From Menidia menidia (lineage: Eukaryota), in assembly GCA_048628825.1 (NCBI GenBank), contig CM109626.1, forward strand, positions 16,957,077 to 17,021,076: DNA of 64,000 bases, read 5' to 3'. This document shows positions 15,501-56,936 of the stretch, one piece after another (position 1 is the stretch's first letter; the number at the start of each line of letters is the position of its first letter). The notes under the pieces were generated by a model. That model saw only the letters and a list, made by a program, of their open reading frames with translations, made no database searches and had not been told where the DNA came from. Made by a program: the position numbers and the translations under genes.

Positions 15501-17605
15501 AACGCCACGGGGGCCGCCTTTGTCTTCTCGGGTAATCAAAAAAATGTTTTCAAAGTGAGAATGATTCAGACGGAGAGCACCTTTCTGGCCTGGGGATGAA
15601 ATAACACGCGCGTGCTTGTGTCTTTTGAGCGATCTCCAAGCAAAACCGAATCCCCACTGACCCCGAGAGGAGCAACAATTCTCCTATGAATGAGTATATC
15701 TATCACTGTTTTCAACATGGAAATACACCCAAATCTCTGCAGTGATGTTGGGAGAACACATTTGGTCCTTTGGTCCGTAAACGGGACCTGTGACAGCATC
15801 CTGTAGAGTTGGAGGACGGAAACGTGACTCACATCGGTGTTTCCACATCAGAGCAGACGTCATTCTTTAGAGTTTTTATCTGAGAAACCACAGAGAGCTC
15901 AGTTGGGAGCAGGAGGGGCGTGCGGCACTTTCAATCCGTCATGACGCATGTTTGAGACTAAAATTTGACCCTTTTTTCTCCACTGACTTTTGTTTAGTCA
16001 ACATTACCACCCTTTAAAGTCTGAGGTAGAGAGATGACTTTGATATGGGGCATCCAATGTAAAAATAAATCACACATGACGTTTTTTGGAATATTTAACC
16101 AATTTCTTTAGATTTAAGAGGAAAATTAAACTGAAATACCAGCATAAACAACAGATTTAAAACGTGGAAGGTATCCGGTATATTAAATATAAAGCCAAGA
16201 AGTGTTTACATGAAATATTTATGTTCTACATTTGGATTTAGGTATTGTAACAGATTTAATCCTCCTTTAATCCTCCTACTGCTGCTTAGTTCTGCTTAGT
16301 GGGGTAACTTAACGTTCACAAAGATGAAATTAGAAAAACCTTTTGTTTATCTAAATTGTGTCCATGATTATCAGGGATGGTTTACATCCCTATGGTTGAT
16401 TCACTTTTTTTCAATTGAAAAAGAAATTGCAAGAAGGGGAAATAACAGATTTTTAGAAAAGCCAAAAAAAGGTGTTACACCTTAGGAAATAATTTAAAAT
16501 TCTACAGCCTAGGAAATCATTCTGAAAACTTTTTGAAAACACAACAAAATACTCTAAAAGGCTCTCAAGCAGCCTGTAGCCATTTAATCCCAAATTTGCC
16601 CCTGTATGTGTGTCACTCCGTAGACCTCTCCAACACTTTTTTTTAACTCATTTTTTTCATTTCATGTTAGTTCAATTTGGGAAAAGGGAGGTTTTCTACA
16701 ACTGTTTCCTTTGGGAAACATCAAAGTCTGAATTTTTTCATTTGGCCAACTTGAATTTAGAACAAATATGTGTAACACACCACAACTGGGGGTGGTGAAG
16801 CGCTGTAATCCCTCCATTACATCAGGAACTCCTCTCCCTCAGTAAGCACCTCTGAACTTTTCTAACTCCTTCACACCTGTTAAAGTGATGTCACGCAGAC
16901 GGCGCTATCTCACTGTGCCGAGGGACAGATAACCTCATCAGATCACTTCATCAATAAGGGCTAATTGAGGGGGAAAGGTTATCACGCGTACATGTACACC
17001 CTGGAGGAACTTCTGCGTGTTCAGCCAGACCAGGAATCACACTTGGCCCCTGTCCAAAGTCCACTCTGCTCAGTTTTTGCCGGTCTGATGCAATGACCGT
17101 CATAGTTCTTACATTTACTCTTCTTGGATAGAAAAGCGCACACATCAAAGTAATTTTCATTATATCCGAAAAGACCATTAACAACATATATGTACGAAAT
17201 ATTTCAGTTGTATCTGTTTATTAATAACCTCTTAAGTTCTGTATAATGCAGCTCATTAACCGGTTACCATATAATTCAGGTATTTGCCTACTTACTTATA
17301 CCATTTTGAGCCTGGGCATTTTCATCCAGAAGTGCAGACAAAATAGACCTGGTCATGTGACCATCACACCTCTTACATGTGTGTATTTGTTATATATTCC
17401 TCAGATTTCTGCCAAATCTAATGACTTTTGGTGCTGCAAGATTATTTTTTTTGCTAACCTGTACAGGCCCACTTGTGTACACTACTTCACATATTAAACA
17501 CGTTAAAGCAGTAAAAACATTTGACTTTTGAAAAGCCAACCATTACGAACGTCTGTGATAATTTAGTGGTAAAATGTGTAAAAATGTTTATCACAGTGGA
17601 CTCAC

Positions 17606-18499
17606 CATGCACTTATTGGGCTTTTCTCCAGAGTGAACCCTCATGTGGATGAGCAGCTTGTAGCGGGCGTTGAAGGGCTTGTGTCGGCGGATGCAGCCGG
17701 TCCAGAAACAGGCAAACTCCTCCCCTTTGCGCTGGTCGATGTGCACCTTCTCGATGTGCCTCACCAGCTCCTCCTGACAGCCGTAGGTGGCGCTGCAGTC
17801 GATCCAGTGGCACGACTGCTCCTGCTGGTCCAGCGTGGGGCTCTGCCCCAGCGGCCCGGGGGAGTGAAGAGGTGACCGGGTGCCGTCCTGACCGCTGTAA
17901 CCCTGCAGGGACTGGCCCAGATGGAAGAGTGGCCCCTGCTGGCTGCTCATCTGAACTGGCTCCCTTTTGCACGGTGTGAAATCATCTGCCGGCTCCTGTT
18001 TGATCGAGCAATACTCCTCCTGTGGATTGTGCTGCTGCTGCTGAGACACTTTGTGGTGGTTATCAGAAGCAGGCAAGCAGGAGGTCAGAGGTAAAGAGGA
18101 GGAGGAAGTGGAGAGGGAGGACGGTGGAGAAACGAAAGACGGAGACGTGGCGCAGTTGGTGAGCATGTAGGGGACGGGAAAGGAGGGCTGAGGGAAGCAG
18201 CTGAACCTCTGGGCACCGTTTCTGGGGTCTGTCTGAGCTTTGCTGGCAAAGTCCTCCACAGTCTTTTCTAGGTGGGGTGCCGCGGTCTTACAGCTGAGCA
18301 GCGAGCTGAGGTCACATCCCAGAGAGGACAGGGACAGCGAGGTCCTGGAAAGGCAGCAGAGGCCTCCTGAGCTGATGGATGGCTGGCAGAAGCCACCGGA
18401 GGACAGAGGCGCCTGAAGATCCTCGGCATCTTCAAACACGCTCCCGAAACCAGGAAGAGTCAACTGCACATCTGGAGGACCGAGGTCAGGGGGCCACAT
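17606..18499 (-). CDS. GLIS-family zinc finger protein, 5' coding exon. It carries a Ser/Pro-rich N-terminal region plus C2H2 fingers 1-2, and the first in-frame ATG is at 18499.
   Basis: The 308-aa ORF on the minus strand ends ...CHWIDCSATYGCQEELVRHIEKVHIDQRKGEEFACFWTGCIRRHKPFNARYKLLIHMRVHSGEKPNKCM, which matches GLIS1/GLIS3 finger 1-2 sequences recalled from memory. The donor is ATG|gtgagt at 17606/17605. In-frame stop codons lie upstream of codon 18517, and the first ATG is at 18499-18497. Confidence 0.7.
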
Positions 18500-20089
18500 A
18501 CCGGCCCCCACTAACACCAGCAGATTTTAATAATGGTGATTCTCCGAGAGCAACTGTAGGACTCCACCGGAAATTAAACCATCCACCACTTCTTTTAACA
18601 CTCAAAAGTAAATTGATCTGATGGATTAGAAGCAGCTGGCATCTTTTGGAGGAGCAATCTTCTGTCTTTTGTTCCCAAGTAGCCGGTCATCACTGGAAGA
18701 CTGCGGGAAAAAGACACCAAGGCAACTGAGTCCTCTTAAAAGACAGGAACACATTTCTGAATTTGTAACAGCAGTGTTTATGTTGGCTGAATTTGTTCCG
18801 TGTGTTCAAATAGCAGAAGAAAAGCTTCTGGTTTATAAAGATGGCGAATAAAAAATCCATTCTATAGAGATACACTAAAGGGTGATCACGAGAGCCTTAT
18901 ACATGCAAATAGTAAATAGTAAGTCAATAAAGTTTAACAAAGGTAAAACAAAATCAAAGACACCTATTATGGGCTGCACACGAAAAGCCCTCTGCTGTTT
19001 TTCCTCATGTCACCAGAGTCACCAGAGACATCATTTCCAACTACCTGACAGGACAAATGATCAACATCTGTCCAAAAGGACACATCTGGTCAGTGCAGAG
19101 GGGACAGGAATGCAAAGGTTTTATGAGAAGGGAAAATGCACAGATATGGAAAAATGCAAAGAAAGGATATTATCTTATGTTTTCTGAAATATTAAAGGAG
19201 ACGACTCTCTCTAACCTGTGCTGACTGGAGTATCTGTTTGACGTCAGAGTTGTAAAAGGTGTATTAAAACTGAGACATTAAGGTGACAAATCAGAGGAAA
19301 TGAGCTGAAAGAGCATCTCTGTTAGAACCCCTTTCTTTACACTATTTCTTCAAGCTGAACAGCCAGCCATCCTGATCCGTGTCCCTGACAGATTAATGCA
19401 GGTTTAACATGTGGAAACAGTTAAAAAAGAAGTTGTCCAACATTCACAAAGGATGATGCAGAAGAAGCAGATGGGCCCTCTTTTCCTTCCTGCTTTACTT
19501 GGAAGGCAACACACGGGATGCTGCAAAGTTCAGACAAAGGAATTTGCTCTTCACTCCTCATTTTCAAAGTGATACATTTTACTGATCTCCATCACCAGAC
19601 GTCTTACAACAGGAGCCACGGTGCGTTGAACTGATCCTTTTCTCCTTCAGGTGTGACACCTCGCACACTTTCCACCATAAATCAGCATAAATCGAGTCAG
19701 AATTCACTACGCCTGAACTGACCAGCAGAGAGACTCTGTAGCAGGATTTTTCTTCTGCCAATCAGGATATAAAATGGATCTAAACAACTGCATAAGATTC
19801 TTTTTGATGAAGTTTGAAGTAATTTTTCATCATTCCCGTCTTCTGCCACCTTTTTATCTTTTGCTCTACATAATGTTTAGCTTTTGTGCAGAAAGAGTCA
19901 TAATGAAACGAAACAAGACAGCTATAAAGTATCCGTGTCATTTCCTGTCAGGGAAAGACATTTTCTGCATTATATTAAAGACATTTTCTGCATTATATTA
20001 AAGGTTGCTAAGAAACTAGGCCTGCCATGCTGAGGAAATCCCTTCTTGTCTGACGGTGACGCCGTCATTTCCACTCTGACTTCAGTCGT

Positions 20090-39580: not shown

Positions 39581-40258
<678 letters not shown>

Positions 40259-40331
40259 TAGTGTGAACGTCGTGTCCGATCTCGGCCCGGACGCCGCTGG
40301 CCCCCCTCTCTGACCGCCATGTTGCTCCCCA

Positions 40332-50500: not shown

Positions 50501-52541
50501 AGCCTTCACAGCTCAAACATTTTCTCTTAAAGCTCACATGTGCACGAGATTTCTCTCATCTGACTGTACTCAAATCTATTCACCAGTTCATGTTTTGGCT
50601 TTAAAAGACACCAAACACCTTCATCTTTCTAATAAAGTATCTCACATGTGTCAGAAAAATGTTTTACTCTCATAACCAGAAAAAACTAAGTTTCTGTGAG
50701 TCAGTAAAACTCCGACTGGTTTTAGCTCATGTTAAGCCTGTAATGCCAAATGTATCATATTTGATACATGCAGTTTCTGAAATGTTTTGCGTCTGACACC
50801 TTTTGCATAATTTAATGGTAAAAACTTTGCTCAAAATCCTATTGTACAGAATCAGATATACCTGATAACAGGAGGCAGAAGACTACACAAAAAATAATCT
50901 TGACTTATCGCATAGTAATAAATTATCAAAAATGTATTTCCGTTTTTTCTTTTTACATATTTTGTTAAAAGGCCAAATAAGTCATTCAAACAAAAAGTGA
51001 AAGTAATTTTCTGTTTTGTTTTATTCTTGGATCAGGCTTTAAAGGGTTAAGTTGGATCTTCAGTGATTCTCAAAGTGCTTTAAGTAATCAGCTTATTACA
51101 GTGTTAATATATTAGAGGGTGTTTTACCTTTTTATGTTCGACCAAAATGTTTAACAGTATGATTTCAAAGATAATCGAGGTCCTCACACACTCAAAGAGG
51201 GATGAATAACACATTTTCATCATCGTTATTATCACCATTATTCATGTTATATGACCTCCTGCCGCCCCCCAGAGGTCTGTAGGGGCTAAGGCTTAAAATA
51301 AGTCCAAAACGCAGCTTTTTATTTAGTTTGGTGTTCATTAACAGACAACATCATGTATACTTTCAAGTCGTGGGTGAGGATAGACATTAAACCAGACGTT
51401 TCTGTTTACTCTCAATAATTTATTTGTTCAGTAAAAAACCAGCACCGTAGAAAATAAGTGTTCACCCATTTAAAAAACACAAAAACACATACAAAAATCT
51501 GATTATTCTGCATCAGAAACACCAGAAGTGACGAGACAAAAGCTGCCCGTCAGACGTGGGACGGCGGTTAAAGTGCGACTGGAAAACGTCCCGACGGGCA
51601 GCACGACAACCCGGAAACAAAACAGCCCCTTCAAACGGACCGTTTCAAAGAAAAACAAGAAGATGCTTCCAGAAAGAAAGGCCCTTTGAAAGCCCAGCAC
51701 AGTAACAGACTGACACGTTTCAGGGGCCCGGCCTGAGCTTTTAGACATGGAGGTTAAAGGCAGGAGCCTGTAAAAATATGAAAATCATCATTATGTTTAG
51801 AATGGCGTCAATGGCACTCCACAGAAAATGAACCTGTAGTTTTTAGCAGCTTTGTGGCAAAAAGTAATCGGAAAAATGATTGTTTTGATAAAAAACAATA
51901 AACAGCTTTAGGAACTCCTTAATCTATTACTGATGGTGACAATCGTATTTATTATTTATTTAAAATTCATACAGCAAAGGCTTTTAAGAACGTGACTTGT
52001 AAGAGGAGCAGATTTCTAAATCAGTCTCTGTTCTACCCTGTCAACCTAAGGCAGATTGTGTTTATTCTTTTAGGAAAAGCAAGAGTTTTGAGATAGTTTA
52101 ATGATAACTATAAAAAATGTAATTAACCTGTTTTAAATAAAAAATTAGAAAAAAAAAGCTAAAAATCTTTGGATTAAACCATCTGAAAGACTTATTATCT
52201 GTTGCACATTTAGTGTTCATTTTACAACGTCTCAGCCTTTTCTGTGATGGATGGACCTGACGAGCTGTATTATTGGGGGTATTTGGGCTCCTCCCCTCAT
52301 GAGGAACTCTGTGTGTTCAGATATACCTCCTCAGAGAGGATGAACCGGGCCAGTGGATCGTAAACTGAGATGGTTTTCAACATGTCGGCAGATATTTGGG
52401 TGGAAATGTCTCCCTTTATGAGCTCTACCGGATGGCTAAAGACATCAGTGAGGAGAGCGTTTGTTGCCAAACCTGATGCTCCTGGTGGAGTCCGTTGGCC
52501 CTGGCGATCCCTGCTGAAGGCGCCTCCTCCTGAGGATCCGG

Positions 52542-54164
52542 CTAAATGTTCAGGCCCTCCTCCCGCAGCGCGTCTGACTGGAGGCGGGATCCTCTCCGGC
52601 TGGGCCGGTGTTCCCTGTCGCTGCCCTTCCTCCCGGGCCTCTCCTCCTCCTCCCCTCCTGCTGACTCAAACACCCTCCTGGCGCTCTCCACCCTGCTGCC
52701 CTGTCTCCCCCCTTCCCTCTCCCTGGGCTCCTGGTCCCTCCTGTGGTGACTCCTCTCCGATTCCCTGTCCGTCTCCCTCCTCGTCACCCCCTCGGGACCC
52801 CGGTGGGACTCCTTCTTCCTCCTTGTGCTTCCTTGATGCTCGCTTTCTGTCCCCTTGCTTCCTTGTTTCTCCTCTCTGCTCCTCACCATCTCTGCTCTCC
52901 AGTCTTTTACTCCCCTGTCCTCCTCTCCTTTTCTCCCCCAGCACTCCGACCGGTCCCCTCTGTCTTTGTGGCGGCTCTTCCTCTCCTCATCTGGCTCTCT
53001 CGCTTTATTTCTGTCTCCTCTCTCTCCGTCTTTGCTGCTCCTGCTGCTGCTGTGCCTCCTGGTATGCTCACCTTGCACCCCCTGCTCTTGTTTCCCCTCC
53101 ATCTTCATCCCCCCTCCCTCCTCCCGGCTGCTTCTTTTCCTCTCGCTTTCCTTCTTCTCCCGCGCTGCCTGGGATTTTGAACTCCGGTCATCCTGTTTTG
53201 AATCTCCTGATCTGCTCTGAGCTTCTTCCTTCTCCTTCTTATTGCTCTCCTTCTCCTTCCAGACAGCCGTTCTCTTTGCTCCAGAGTCTTCTTTGGCCTT
53301 TTCGTGCTTACTCTCCTGTTTCTTGTCTTTTTCAGCAGCCAGACGGTTCTCACTTTCTTTGTCTCTCTTGGTTCCTTTCTGAGACTCTCCTGCTATAATG
53401 TCTTTGCTGCTTTTGTTACTGGTGTCATTTTTCTGCTTCTGCTTCTCGTCGGGAATCTTCTGTAGCTTCCCTCCTTCCTCTGCGTTGGTTTCCATTTTCT
53501 CCTGTTTCTCCTGTTTCTCCTTCTTTTCCTCCTGCTCTCCTTTCTCCTTCGTGCTCTTCTCCTCCTTTTTGTCCTTCTTCAGTTTGAAAAGTCCCTTCTC
53601 CGTCTCTTTTTTCTTCTGCGGCTCCACCTCCTCCTTCTTGTCCAGCTTCTCCTCCAGGAGGTCCAGCTCCTGCTCCAGCTCAGCCAGCTTCTTTGGGTCA
53701 GACTCCAAATCGTCGTCCACCTCAACCTCCACCTCCTCGATCTCCTCGTACTCCTCCACCTCGATGCCGTCCATGGTCTTCTGCAGCTGCGTCTTCACCT
53801 TGTTCAGCTCCAGGAGGCCGTCCTGGAGGTCTTTGCACACCTCTCTGATCTTGCCAGCAAACTTGGTTTTGGCGCCCTTTCGGAGCTCGTGGGAGTCCTT
53901 GGCGAGGAAGAAAACGTCCAGAGCCAAGAAGAGGGCGGACATGACACCTGTGGTGACGCTGATGGCCTGGGCGGCCTTGGCGGCGCCGCCCGCGGCGCCC
54001 AGAACCTGCACGGTGCTGATGAGCTTGTCGGTGTTGATCATCAGGGCTTTTCCCGCCCGGCCTCCCTCCTTCATCACGTGCTTGATGTTGTGGTTCATGG
54101 CCTTTTTGGCAGCACTCTGAGAGTACTTCTCAAAATCCCACTCCTGTAGGGTGTCCATACCTTC
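52542..54164 (-). CDS. Apolipoprotein-L domain protein, terminal exon. It encodes the C-terminal APOL region (EGMDTLQEWDFEKYSQSAAKKAMNHNIKHVMKEGGRAGKALMINTDKLISTVQVLGAAGGAAKAAQAISVTTGVMSALFLALDVFFLAKDSHELRKGAKTKFAGKIREVCKDLQDGLLELNKVKTQLQ), then about 400 aa of K/E/R/D/S-rich low-complexity tail, ending at stop 52542-52544.
   Basis: The acceptor is ctctgcag|GAAGGTATG at 54165/54164, in phase 0 with the previous exon. The first 130 aa resemble the APOL1 C-terminus ([61 protein letters not shown]). The tail ORF is uninterrupted, but it lies in a pure purine tract where stop codons are rare, so its reality as coding sequence is uncertain. Confidence 0.65.
   Translation of the reverse strand, partial: EGMDTLQEWDFEKYSQSAAKKAMNHNIKHVMKEGGRAGKALMINTDKLISTVQVLGAAGGAAKAAQAISVTTGVMSALFLALDVFFLAKDSHELRKGAKTKFAGKIREVCKDLQDGLLELNKVKTQLQKTMDGIEVEEYEEIEEVEVEVDDDLESDPKKLAELEQELDLLEEKLDKKEEVEPQKKKETEKGLFKLKKDKKEEKSTKEKGEQEEKKEKQEKQEKMETNAEEGGKLQKIPDEKQKQKNDTSNKSSKDIIAGESQKGTKRDKESENRLAAEKDKKQESKHEKAKEDSGAKRTAVWKEKESNKKEKEEAQSRSGDSKQDDRSSKSQAAREKKESERKRSSREEGGGMKMEGKQEQGVQGEHTRRHSSSRSSKDGERGDRNKAREPDEERKSRHKDRGDRSECWGRKGEEDRGVKDWRAEMVRSREEKQGSKGTESEHQGSTRRKKESHRGPEGVTRRETDRESERSHHRRDQEPREREGGRQGSRVESARRVFESAGGEEEERPGRKGSDREHRPSRRGSRLQSDALREEGLNI
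52600..53650. repeat. Strand-asymmetric polypurine/polypyrimidine tract of about 1 kb. The plus strand is almost exclusively C/T, the minus strand A/G. It overlaps the tail of the APOL terminal exon.
   Basis: Long CT-only stretches (ctcctcc, tctcc, cttcct...) occur on the plus strand. ORFs longer than 100 codons are open on both strands, because stop codons are absent from both purine-only and pyrimidine-only sequence. Confidence 0.8.
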
Positions 54165-56876: not shown

Positions 56877-56936
56877 CTGCTTCTCCGATGTTTTGGGCGT
56901 CCGTCTGAACATCCCAGCAAACCCCATGTTTTTCTC
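56877..56936 (-). CDS. Array exon, A module: EKNMGFAGMFRRTPKTSEKQ.
   Basis: The acceptor is cag|GAGAAAAAC and the donor AAGCAG|gtacag. Confidence 0.6.

Follow-up and report, generated by a model that had tools for sequence, protein, structure and literature searches.

The 64,000 nucleotides of Menidia menidia DNA analysed in this study (GCA_048628825.1, contig CM109626.1, forward-strand positions 16,957,077 to 17,021,076; hereafter the window) are teleost DNA and carry an apold1a-like gene, which encodes an apolipoprotein-L-domain (ApoL) protein, on the minus strand. The last coding exon of this gene (52542-54164, minus strand), whose splice sites were read directly, consists of 540 codons and a TAG stop; a CAG acceptor lies upstream of 54164, the exon is joined in phase 0 to the preceding exon (55270-54856), and the frame remains open down to the TAG at 52544-52542. 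The 3' two-thirds of this exon, which belongs to the teleost apold1a / si:rp71-1g18.13 orthogroup, is a strand-asymmetric tract in which a long, highly charged tail follows the ApoL domain, and it is this tract that is examined here.

Gene identity and exon layout

Upstream of the last exon, the same minus-strand gene was modelled with GT-AG borders at 56927-56877, 56421-56350, 56232-56170 and 56059-55997, followed by 55720-55643, 55555-55516, 55433-55382 and 55270-54856, and the modelled exons from 56927 to 52542 form one continuous frame of 818 amino acids (aa). The main part of the ApoL domain sits in exon 55270-54856 (Pfam PF05461, 75.6 bits, E = 5.9e-21, profile positions 48-171), while its C-terminal part, EGMDTLQEW...LELNKVKTQLQ, occupies 53781-54164 of the last exon (34.2 bits, E = 2.5e-8, profile positions 222-297 of 298). 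Both exons score above the PF05461 gathering cut-off of 25.9 bits, which places the protein in the ApoL family. The initial annotation, made from the sequence alone, had described an APOL C-terminus ending in LELNKVKTQLQ and continuing into a long polyampholyte open frame, and this description was borne out, with the Pfam match ending at 53781 and a tail of 412 codons beyond it.

When the 818-residue model was used as a protein query, 452 proteins matched; the top 120 are all fish ApoL-domain proteins, many of them covering 95-100% of the query. Database names among these best 120 of 452 include apold1a, 'apolipoprotein L domain containing 1a' and si:rp71-1g18.13, and the closest match among those listed is an uncharacterised 1287-aa protein of Leuresthes tenuis (P0001; 77% identity, 100% coverage). 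Other orthologues carry names driven by composition, such as 'titin homolog', 'myb-like protein X', 'neurofilament medium polypeptide', 'nucleolar protein dao-5-like', 'eIF3 subunit A-like', 'myosin-1' and 'Altered inheritance of mitochondria protein 21-like'. The sole Pfam domain in the orthologues, misnamed ones included, is ApoL. Two further models, from Chanos (P0092) and Myxocyprinus (P0118), run on into unrelated sequence (PF03351 in P0092), which looks like annotation read-through. The 538-aa open reading frame (ORF) in the window had no exact-sequence match in the assembly collection.

Orthologues range from 650 to 1430 residues, and the surplus is N-terminal, consisting of KEKGGxFSGMFKKSPK-type repeats. 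A tblastn search with the Leuresthes protein gave co-linear matches across 63171-52545 of the window; between 57671 and 63171 (minus strand), approximately 17 short exons match its N-terminal repeats (KEKGGxFSGMFKKSPK...LSASNDSLSE units). The gene thus extends upstream of the modelled start, with repeat-type exons up to approximately 63171; the ATG modelled at 56927 is therefore probably an internal one, and the full protein probably has about 1200-1300 aa. The similarity to the teleost apold1a / si:rp71-1g18.13 orthogroup is thus full-length and co-linear and includes the N-terminal repeat exons.

Conservation and anatomy of the tail

The last exon of the gene has its co-linear counterpart in the last exon of the Leuresthes tenuis gene (L001:16078-17745), and the two were compared in a codon-blind MAFFT nucleotide alignment, in which they share 82.7% nucleotide identity. 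The alignment contains nine gaps (18, 6, 3, 27, 3, 6, 6, 9 and 3 nt), every one a multiple of three; with unconstrained gap lengths, the chance of this outcome would be approximately (1/3)^9, or 5e-5. All nine lie in the tail, most of them in its middle and distal parts, and none in the ApoL part of the exon. Over 403 codons, the ratio of nonsynonymous to synonymous divergence (dN/dS) in the tail is 0.31 (Nei-Gojobori, dS 0.55), ranging from 0.17 to 0.44 among tail quarters with the first quarter at 0.17; in the ApoL segment of this exon it is 0.015. A dN/dS of 0.27 was obtained for the distal tail (52545-53060). Comparisons with Odontesthes gave similar dN/dS values. The tail thus combines indels in multiples of three, a dN/dS below 1 and conservation that stops at the stop codon, all of which are marks of coding sequence. 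The initial annotation had left undecided whether the tail is translated or is an untranslated, low-complexity 3' region; the comparison of frame conservation and dN/dS across species that it had proposed decides for translation.

The C-terminus of the tail is conserved far beyond this pair of species. The window and Leuresthes proteins share the ending ...SRRGSRL.S.ALREEGLNI at the same stop, and a hydrophobic-x-Ile end ([LFYI]-x-I) was found in 67 of the 112 orthologue tails that could be anchored, which span eels to percomorphs and tail lengths of 110-485 residues. Percomorphs and gadiforms end in GLNI, GLYI, GLDI or GLHI, salmonids in QFYI, and eels and bonefish in PLSI. In a 39-sequence alignment (A1), the C-terminal Ile is invariant and Leu-538 is at least 90% conserved. 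Since this motif is kept in frame past approximately 400 low-complexity codons in many lineages, selection must have acted on the reading frame.

Nucleotide similarity ends at the TAG stop (52542-52544, minus strand), which occupies the same position in Leuresthes. In a blastn comparison of the 2 kb that follow the stop in the window with the 3 kb that follow it in Leuresthes, approximately 1 kb 3' of the TAG showed no detectable similarity, and the only match was an 80-nt block (51414-51493, minus strand; 82.5% over 80 nt). This block contains an AATAAA (51424-51419) at the equivalent place in both species, which is a probable poly(A) signal and would imply a 3' untranslated region (3'UTR) of approximately 1.1 kb. 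The loss of similarity at the stop has the pattern of a boundary between coding sequence (CDS) and 3'UTR.

Transcript sequences from related fish agree with this layout. A 2758-nt Logan contig (L002, from SRR14563179), which begins with Illumina adapter sequence and was read base by base, lacks introns at three junctions that correspond to introns in the window (MEWWN..VKG/WTEW, ..EQM/AMEQ and EFVQ/EGM, the slash marking the junction). With no splicing, it then reads across a 360-residue tail as far as ...DGLNI and a stop, followed by 643 nt of 3'UTR. A second contig (L003, 4743 nt), known from its ORF table only, encodes a 1118-aa orthologue as a single uninterrupted ORF.

The tail itself comprises 412 codons (53780-52545, minus strand) and is composed of 20% E, 15% K, 11% R, 10% S, 8.5% G and 7% D, with a charged fraction of 0.53, a net charge of 0.0, and a kappa of approximately 0.12, which corresponds to well-mixed charges and equals that of shuffled versions. 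It begins with a 50-residue segment (53631-53780, minus strand) made up of an acidic patch, TMDGIEVEEYEEIEEVEVEVDDDLESD, and a predicted helix, PKKLAELEQELDLLEEKLDKK (53625-53696). At most positions of these first 50 residues, at least 80% of 56 orthologues have the same residue, and the acidic-plus-helix segment is kept even in the short-tailed orthologues of cyprinids and eels. The Lys/Glu-rich middle that follows (53061-53630, minus strand; approximately 190 residues) is poorly conserved in the conservation profile and hardly alignable among orthologues, with predicted local distance difference test (pLDDT) scores below 50; it contains one weakly conserved island, KRDKESENRLAAEK, and a tandem repeat of 9 nt x 2.9 at 53496-53521 that encodes KEKQEKQEK (Tandem Repeats Finder).

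The distal 172 residues (52545-53060, minus strand) are Arg/Ser/Glu/Gly-rich and carry short conserved islands, namely RRHSSSRS, RGVKDWRAEM (52887-52916), KESHR, GSRVESARRVFESAGG (52653-52700), RKGSDREH, RRGSR and EGLNI (52545-52559), which recur from salmonids to percomorphs. When the distal 175 residues were searched exhaustively with phmmer in 1.84 billion representatives, four matches resulted, three of which are ApoL-domain proteins in which the distal stretch is located at the C-terminus; this specificity is a further line of evidence for translation. The fourth, a bacterial TPR/FGE-sulfatase protein (P0121), matched over eight short stretches only and was dismissed as compositional.

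AlphaFold2, run on the 540-residue exon product with the 39-sequence alignment, predicted a helix at residues 157-180 (pLDDT 62-84) and a second, short helix at DWRAEMV (residues 422-428), while the other tail residues were modelled as coil with pLDDT below 50; the mean pLDDT of the model is 46. The model suggests that, these two helices aside, the tail is an intrinsically disordered polyampholyte; the confinement of helix to residues 157-180 and 422-428 rules out a single alpha-helix (SAH) domain of the E/K/R-rich type. The initial annotation had raised the possibility of an RS/KE-like disordered domain, a label that is half right: the tail is rich in K, E, R and S, but it has no consecutive RS dipeptides. 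Its 412 residues hold 15 isolated RS/SR dipeptides with a longest run of one, so that it does not constitute an RS domain. The distal part also contains RRHS, RKGS and RRGS, which match the RRxS/RKxS pattern of basophilic-kinase-type sites, and the C-terminus L-N-I-COOH matches the hydrophobic-x-hydrophobic pattern of class II PDZ ligands.

Strand asymmetry and the antisense frame

The plus strand of the tract (52542-53650) is 77.7% C+T, with 6.5% A and 15.8% G, and it includes the kilobase with the strongest strand asymmetry in the window (C+T 0.79 versus a window mean of 0.51). The plus strand had been called pure CT in the initial annotation, which these figures contradict; the longest uninterrupted pyrimidine run in the tract is 22 nt, and other parts of the window have longer runs, of up to 34 nt. 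A search of the tract for pyrimidine-only perfect mirror repeats with arms of at least 10 nt and spacers of at most 8 nt found none, the best mirror repeat having 8-nt arms (53223-53240). With neither such arms nor longer runs, the tract does not qualify as one that forms H-DNA or an intramolecular triplex, and the earlier suggestion that it could adopt these structures found no support on the same grounds. The expectation that the DNA would be unstable fared better, as far as the nine indels in the tail versus none in the ApoL part are concerned. These indels are all in frame and located in low-complexity repeats and therefore fit replication slippage filtered by selection on the protein, for which triplex structures are not needed.

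Most of the asymmetry follows from the encoded protein. Because Glu, Lys, Arg (AGR), Gly, Asp and Ser (AGY) codons are purine-rich, the coding strand is approximately 77% purine; the observed sense-strand value in the tail is 76.7%, compared to 71.8% expected if its amino acids were encoded with the codon preferences found elsewhere in the gene. There is, in addition, a purine excess at synonymous sites. At four-fold sites, purines account for 69% in the tail (52545-53780, minus strand) versus 48% in the other CDS (Fisher p = 3e-4), AGR codons for 36 of 47 Arg in the tail versus 9 of 21 in the rest of the CDS, and AGY codons for 27 of 40 Ser versus 12 of 25. The excess is also present in the related-species cDNA (L002:160-2115; p = 0.006). 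The simplest reading is that it was inherited from slippage-expanded GA-rich repeats. Selection at the nucleic-acid level, which would place the exon under dual protein and nucleic-acid constraint, is quite unlikely; possible causes of such selection would be an unstructured or purine-factor-binding mRNA segment, or a tract prone to R-loop or triplex formation.

The plus strand of the tract carries a Pro/Ser/Leu-rich ORF of 342 codons (52370-53398), whose existence the initial annotation had correctly noted. It starts with an ATG, reaches approximately 170 nt past the stop codon of the tail, and has no Pfam family match. The pyrimidine-rich complement of the coding strand is poor in TAA, TAG and TGA, and the antisense frame is therefore open by chance: codon-order shuffles of the tail gave antisense stop-free runs of 250 +/- 74 codons versus 283 observed in the tail (P = 0.28), and a first-order Markov null gave P = 0.14. 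In Leuresthes, each antisense frame contains 4-7 stops, with a longest open run of 233 codons, and the antisense frames of L002 contain 2-3 stops. An overlapping antisense gene was accordingly rejected, since the length of the run is expected from composition and the frame is broken in Leuresthes, and the plus-strand ORF is regarded as a compositional by-product rather than a gene. On the minus strand, the same Markov null gave a mean longest open run of 172 codons, and a frame open across the whole tract has P = 0.002 on composition alone; the minus-strand frame is far better supported by the cross-species comparison than by this composition test. The statement that the tract is open on both strands is therefore accurate as to the two frames, but the openness of the antisense strand is a by-product of composition.

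Further features outside the gene were observed in the window. A long exon at 17591-18517 (minus strand) is Ser/Pro-rich and then encodes C2H2 zinc fingers (Pfam zf-C2H2_15, E = 1e-17) with a GLIS/ZIC-like look. An RRM exon at 39677-40261 (plus strand; E = 3e-13), hnRNP C/RALY-like by eye, is preceded by a (GT)n-type microsatellite that reads as CVCVCVCV. After the RRM, positions 40218-40251 form a 34-nt G-rich purine run, longer than any run in the tail tract.

Interpretation and comparison with known systems

The tract is very probably translated and encodes a 412-residue disordered polyampholyte tail, with the DNA asymmetry and the antisense frame arising as by-products of coding. There are several potential explanations that compete with this one. 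If the protein ended near the ApoL domain, at an upstream poly(A) site or splice donor, the open frame would be an accident of purine-rich low-complexity sequence. Such sequence is indeed poor in stops, as the mean of 172 codons under the Markov null illustrates; the tail contains an AATAAA (53009-53004, minus strand) and a donor-like AAGGTGAG at 53074 (minus strand), and cyprinid orthologues end approximately 60-86 residues past the ApoL domain. However, neither the AATAAA nor the donor-like site, which lies in a 9-nt stretch absent from Leuresthes, is conserved in that species, and an accidental frame is difficult to reconcile with nine of nine indels in frame, a dN/dS of 0.31, a stop position and C-terminal motif conserved across orders with similarity that collapses past the stop, and transcripts that are unspliced through the tail (L002) or encode the orthologue without interruption (L003). 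An untranslated tail is thus very unlikely. Similarly improbable is that the tract has been kept as a DNA-level element, H-DNA- or triplex-forming and replication-fragile, with coding secondary. It is the most asymmetric kilobase of the window, has a synonymous purine excess that recurs in L002, and combines small tandem repeats with a concentration of indels that the ApoL part lacks, but it is interrupted every 4-5 bases on average, its longest pure run is exceeded elsewhere in the window, mirror repeats with arms of 10 nt or more are absent, and 71.8 of its 76.7% purine are dictated by amino acids. In-frame indels in low-complexity repeats are, moreover, what ordinary slippage filtered by selection produces.

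The plus-strand ORF is long, begins with an ATG and extends past the stop of the tail, all of which would be compatible with a real overlapping gene, but its length is that of the codon shuffles, it matches no Pfam family, stops interrupt the antisense frames of Leuresthes and L002, and the substitutions are distributed as constraint on the minus-strand frame would predict; an antisense gene is extremely improbable. Unlikely, with a small chance of being correct, is that the tail is translated but partly removable by exitron splicing or alternative 3' ends, giving long and short isoforms. NCBI lists many isoforms of the orthologues, the tails of some models are truncated or end in another way (Parambassis X3, 215 aa; Hippocampus comes, 156 aa versus 376 aa in H. 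zosterae), and the donor-like site at 53074 could serve such splicing. However, isoform differences may lie in the N-terminal repeat exons instead of the tail, the shortened models may stem from faulty annotation or assembly, L002 keeps the tail intact, and the L003 orthologue is uninterrupted.

It is also important to note the observations that weigh against the reading as a translated tail. The transcript evidence stems from fish other than the window species, the coding argument does not account for the purine excess at synonymous sites, and the donor-like site lies within the tail. Database isoforms in several other species have shortened tails, and the cyprinid orthologues, with their 60-86 tail residues, lack the distal motifs. 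Since cyprinids keep only the acidic/helix segment, the long distal tail is a lineage-variable addition, not a core requirement of the family. In Odontesthes bonariensis (L004:4552-6167, GCA_027942865.1), a net change of 2 nt shifts the reading frame midway through the tail, and a TGA lies 13 codons ahead of the conserved ...GLNI end. The initial annotation had named a frame-disrupting indel in an orthologue as evidence against translation, and such an indel is present in this one assembly, yet the remaining gaps relative to Leuresthes are all multiples of three, the downstream frame is otherwise intact, and dN/dS past the shift is 0.37 versus Leuresthes. Because the sequence past the shift is still constrained, the frameshift must either have truncated the tail very recently or be an error of assembly; the distal tail may be dispensable in the Odontesthes lineage, or the assembly may be wrong. 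Finally, the roles suggested for the motifs as kinase sites and a PDZ-type ligand are inferred from sequence patterns only.

The tail is attached to a membrane-associated ApoL domain, with the acidic patch and the conserved amphipathic helix adjoining that domain. The fast-evolving Lys/Glu-rich spacer lengthens and shortens by in-frame slippage, and the distal Arg/Ser/Glu-rich part carries the short conserved motifs and the conserved hydrophobic-x-Ile end. In this arrangement, the tail may work as a tether, flexible and rich in charge, from which short linear motifs are offered to partner proteins, candidates being the RRxS basophilic-kinase-type sites, the DWRAEM and SRVESARRxFE islands, and the class-II-PDZ-like C-terminus.

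Annotations of dozens of fish genomes already treat the tail as coding, and the feature is in this respect ordinary. The main value of the study is a clean negative, in that a lopsided kilobase open on both strands is the expected look of any gene for a Glu/Lys/Arg/Ser-rich disordered tail, while in-frame indels, dN/dS, a conserved C-terminus and the loss of similarity past the stop are the criteria that separate a coding from a non-coding tract. Fish apold1a-type proteins emerge as large, uncharacterised and misnamed, with N-terminal repeats, an ApoL membrane domain and a motif-bearing tail, and the conserved tail motifs and hydrophobic-x-Ile end offer concrete handles for their study. A literature search for 'apold1a' or 'rp71-1g18.13' proteins found no paper, and one for 'APOLD1' with zebrafish returned incidental mentions only.

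Among known systems, the teleost apold1a orthologues are the closest. The Leuresthes tenuis protein (P0001), whose locus was the only one examined for exon layout, has the same layout and the same ApoL domain. Together with the orthologues of Cottoperca gobio (P0002) and Gasterosteus aculeatus (P0028), it shares the acidic-plus-helix segment, and the teleost orthologues have in common the RGVKDWRAEM, GSRVESARRxFE and RRGSR motifs and a GLNI-type C-terminus. The tails differ in length, with 110-485 residues in long-tailed species and 60-86 in cyprinids. Human APOLD1 is a short protein of approximately 280 residues that is not known to have an N-terminal repeat region or a long charged tail. The fish gene is named after APOLD1 (Ensembl/UniProt and NCBI labels), and the feature in common with mammalian APOLD1 (VERGE) is the ApoL-type domain. 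APOLD1 forms an ancient, conserved branch of the APOL family, according to a study of APOL evolution that does not treat fish genes (PMC8557400).

At the DNA level, the polypurine/polypyrimidine tract in PKD1 intron 21 is a mirror repeat that forms H-DNA. The tract described here resembles it in its strong purine/pyrimidine asymmetry over approximately 1 kb, but differs in being 22% interrupted, in having no mirror arms of at least 10 nt, and in being coding rather than intronic. At the protein level, the RS domains of SR factors share the distal Arg/Ser richness and the RRxS-type sites of the apold1a tail, while the tail differs from them in having no consecutive RS/SR dipeptides and in being attached to a membrane-type ApoL domain rather than to an RRM. 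The neurofilament-M/H tails, titin PEVK and K/E-rich intrinsically disordered regions have in common with the tail a high charge fraction, zero net charge, mixed charges and disorder, and charged low-complexity tails likewise evolve by in-frame gain and loss of repeats, a likeness in behaviour only. What sets the apold1a tail apart from tails of the neurofilament and titin type is its distal part, which in the exhaustive phmmer search was specific to ApoL-domain proteins.

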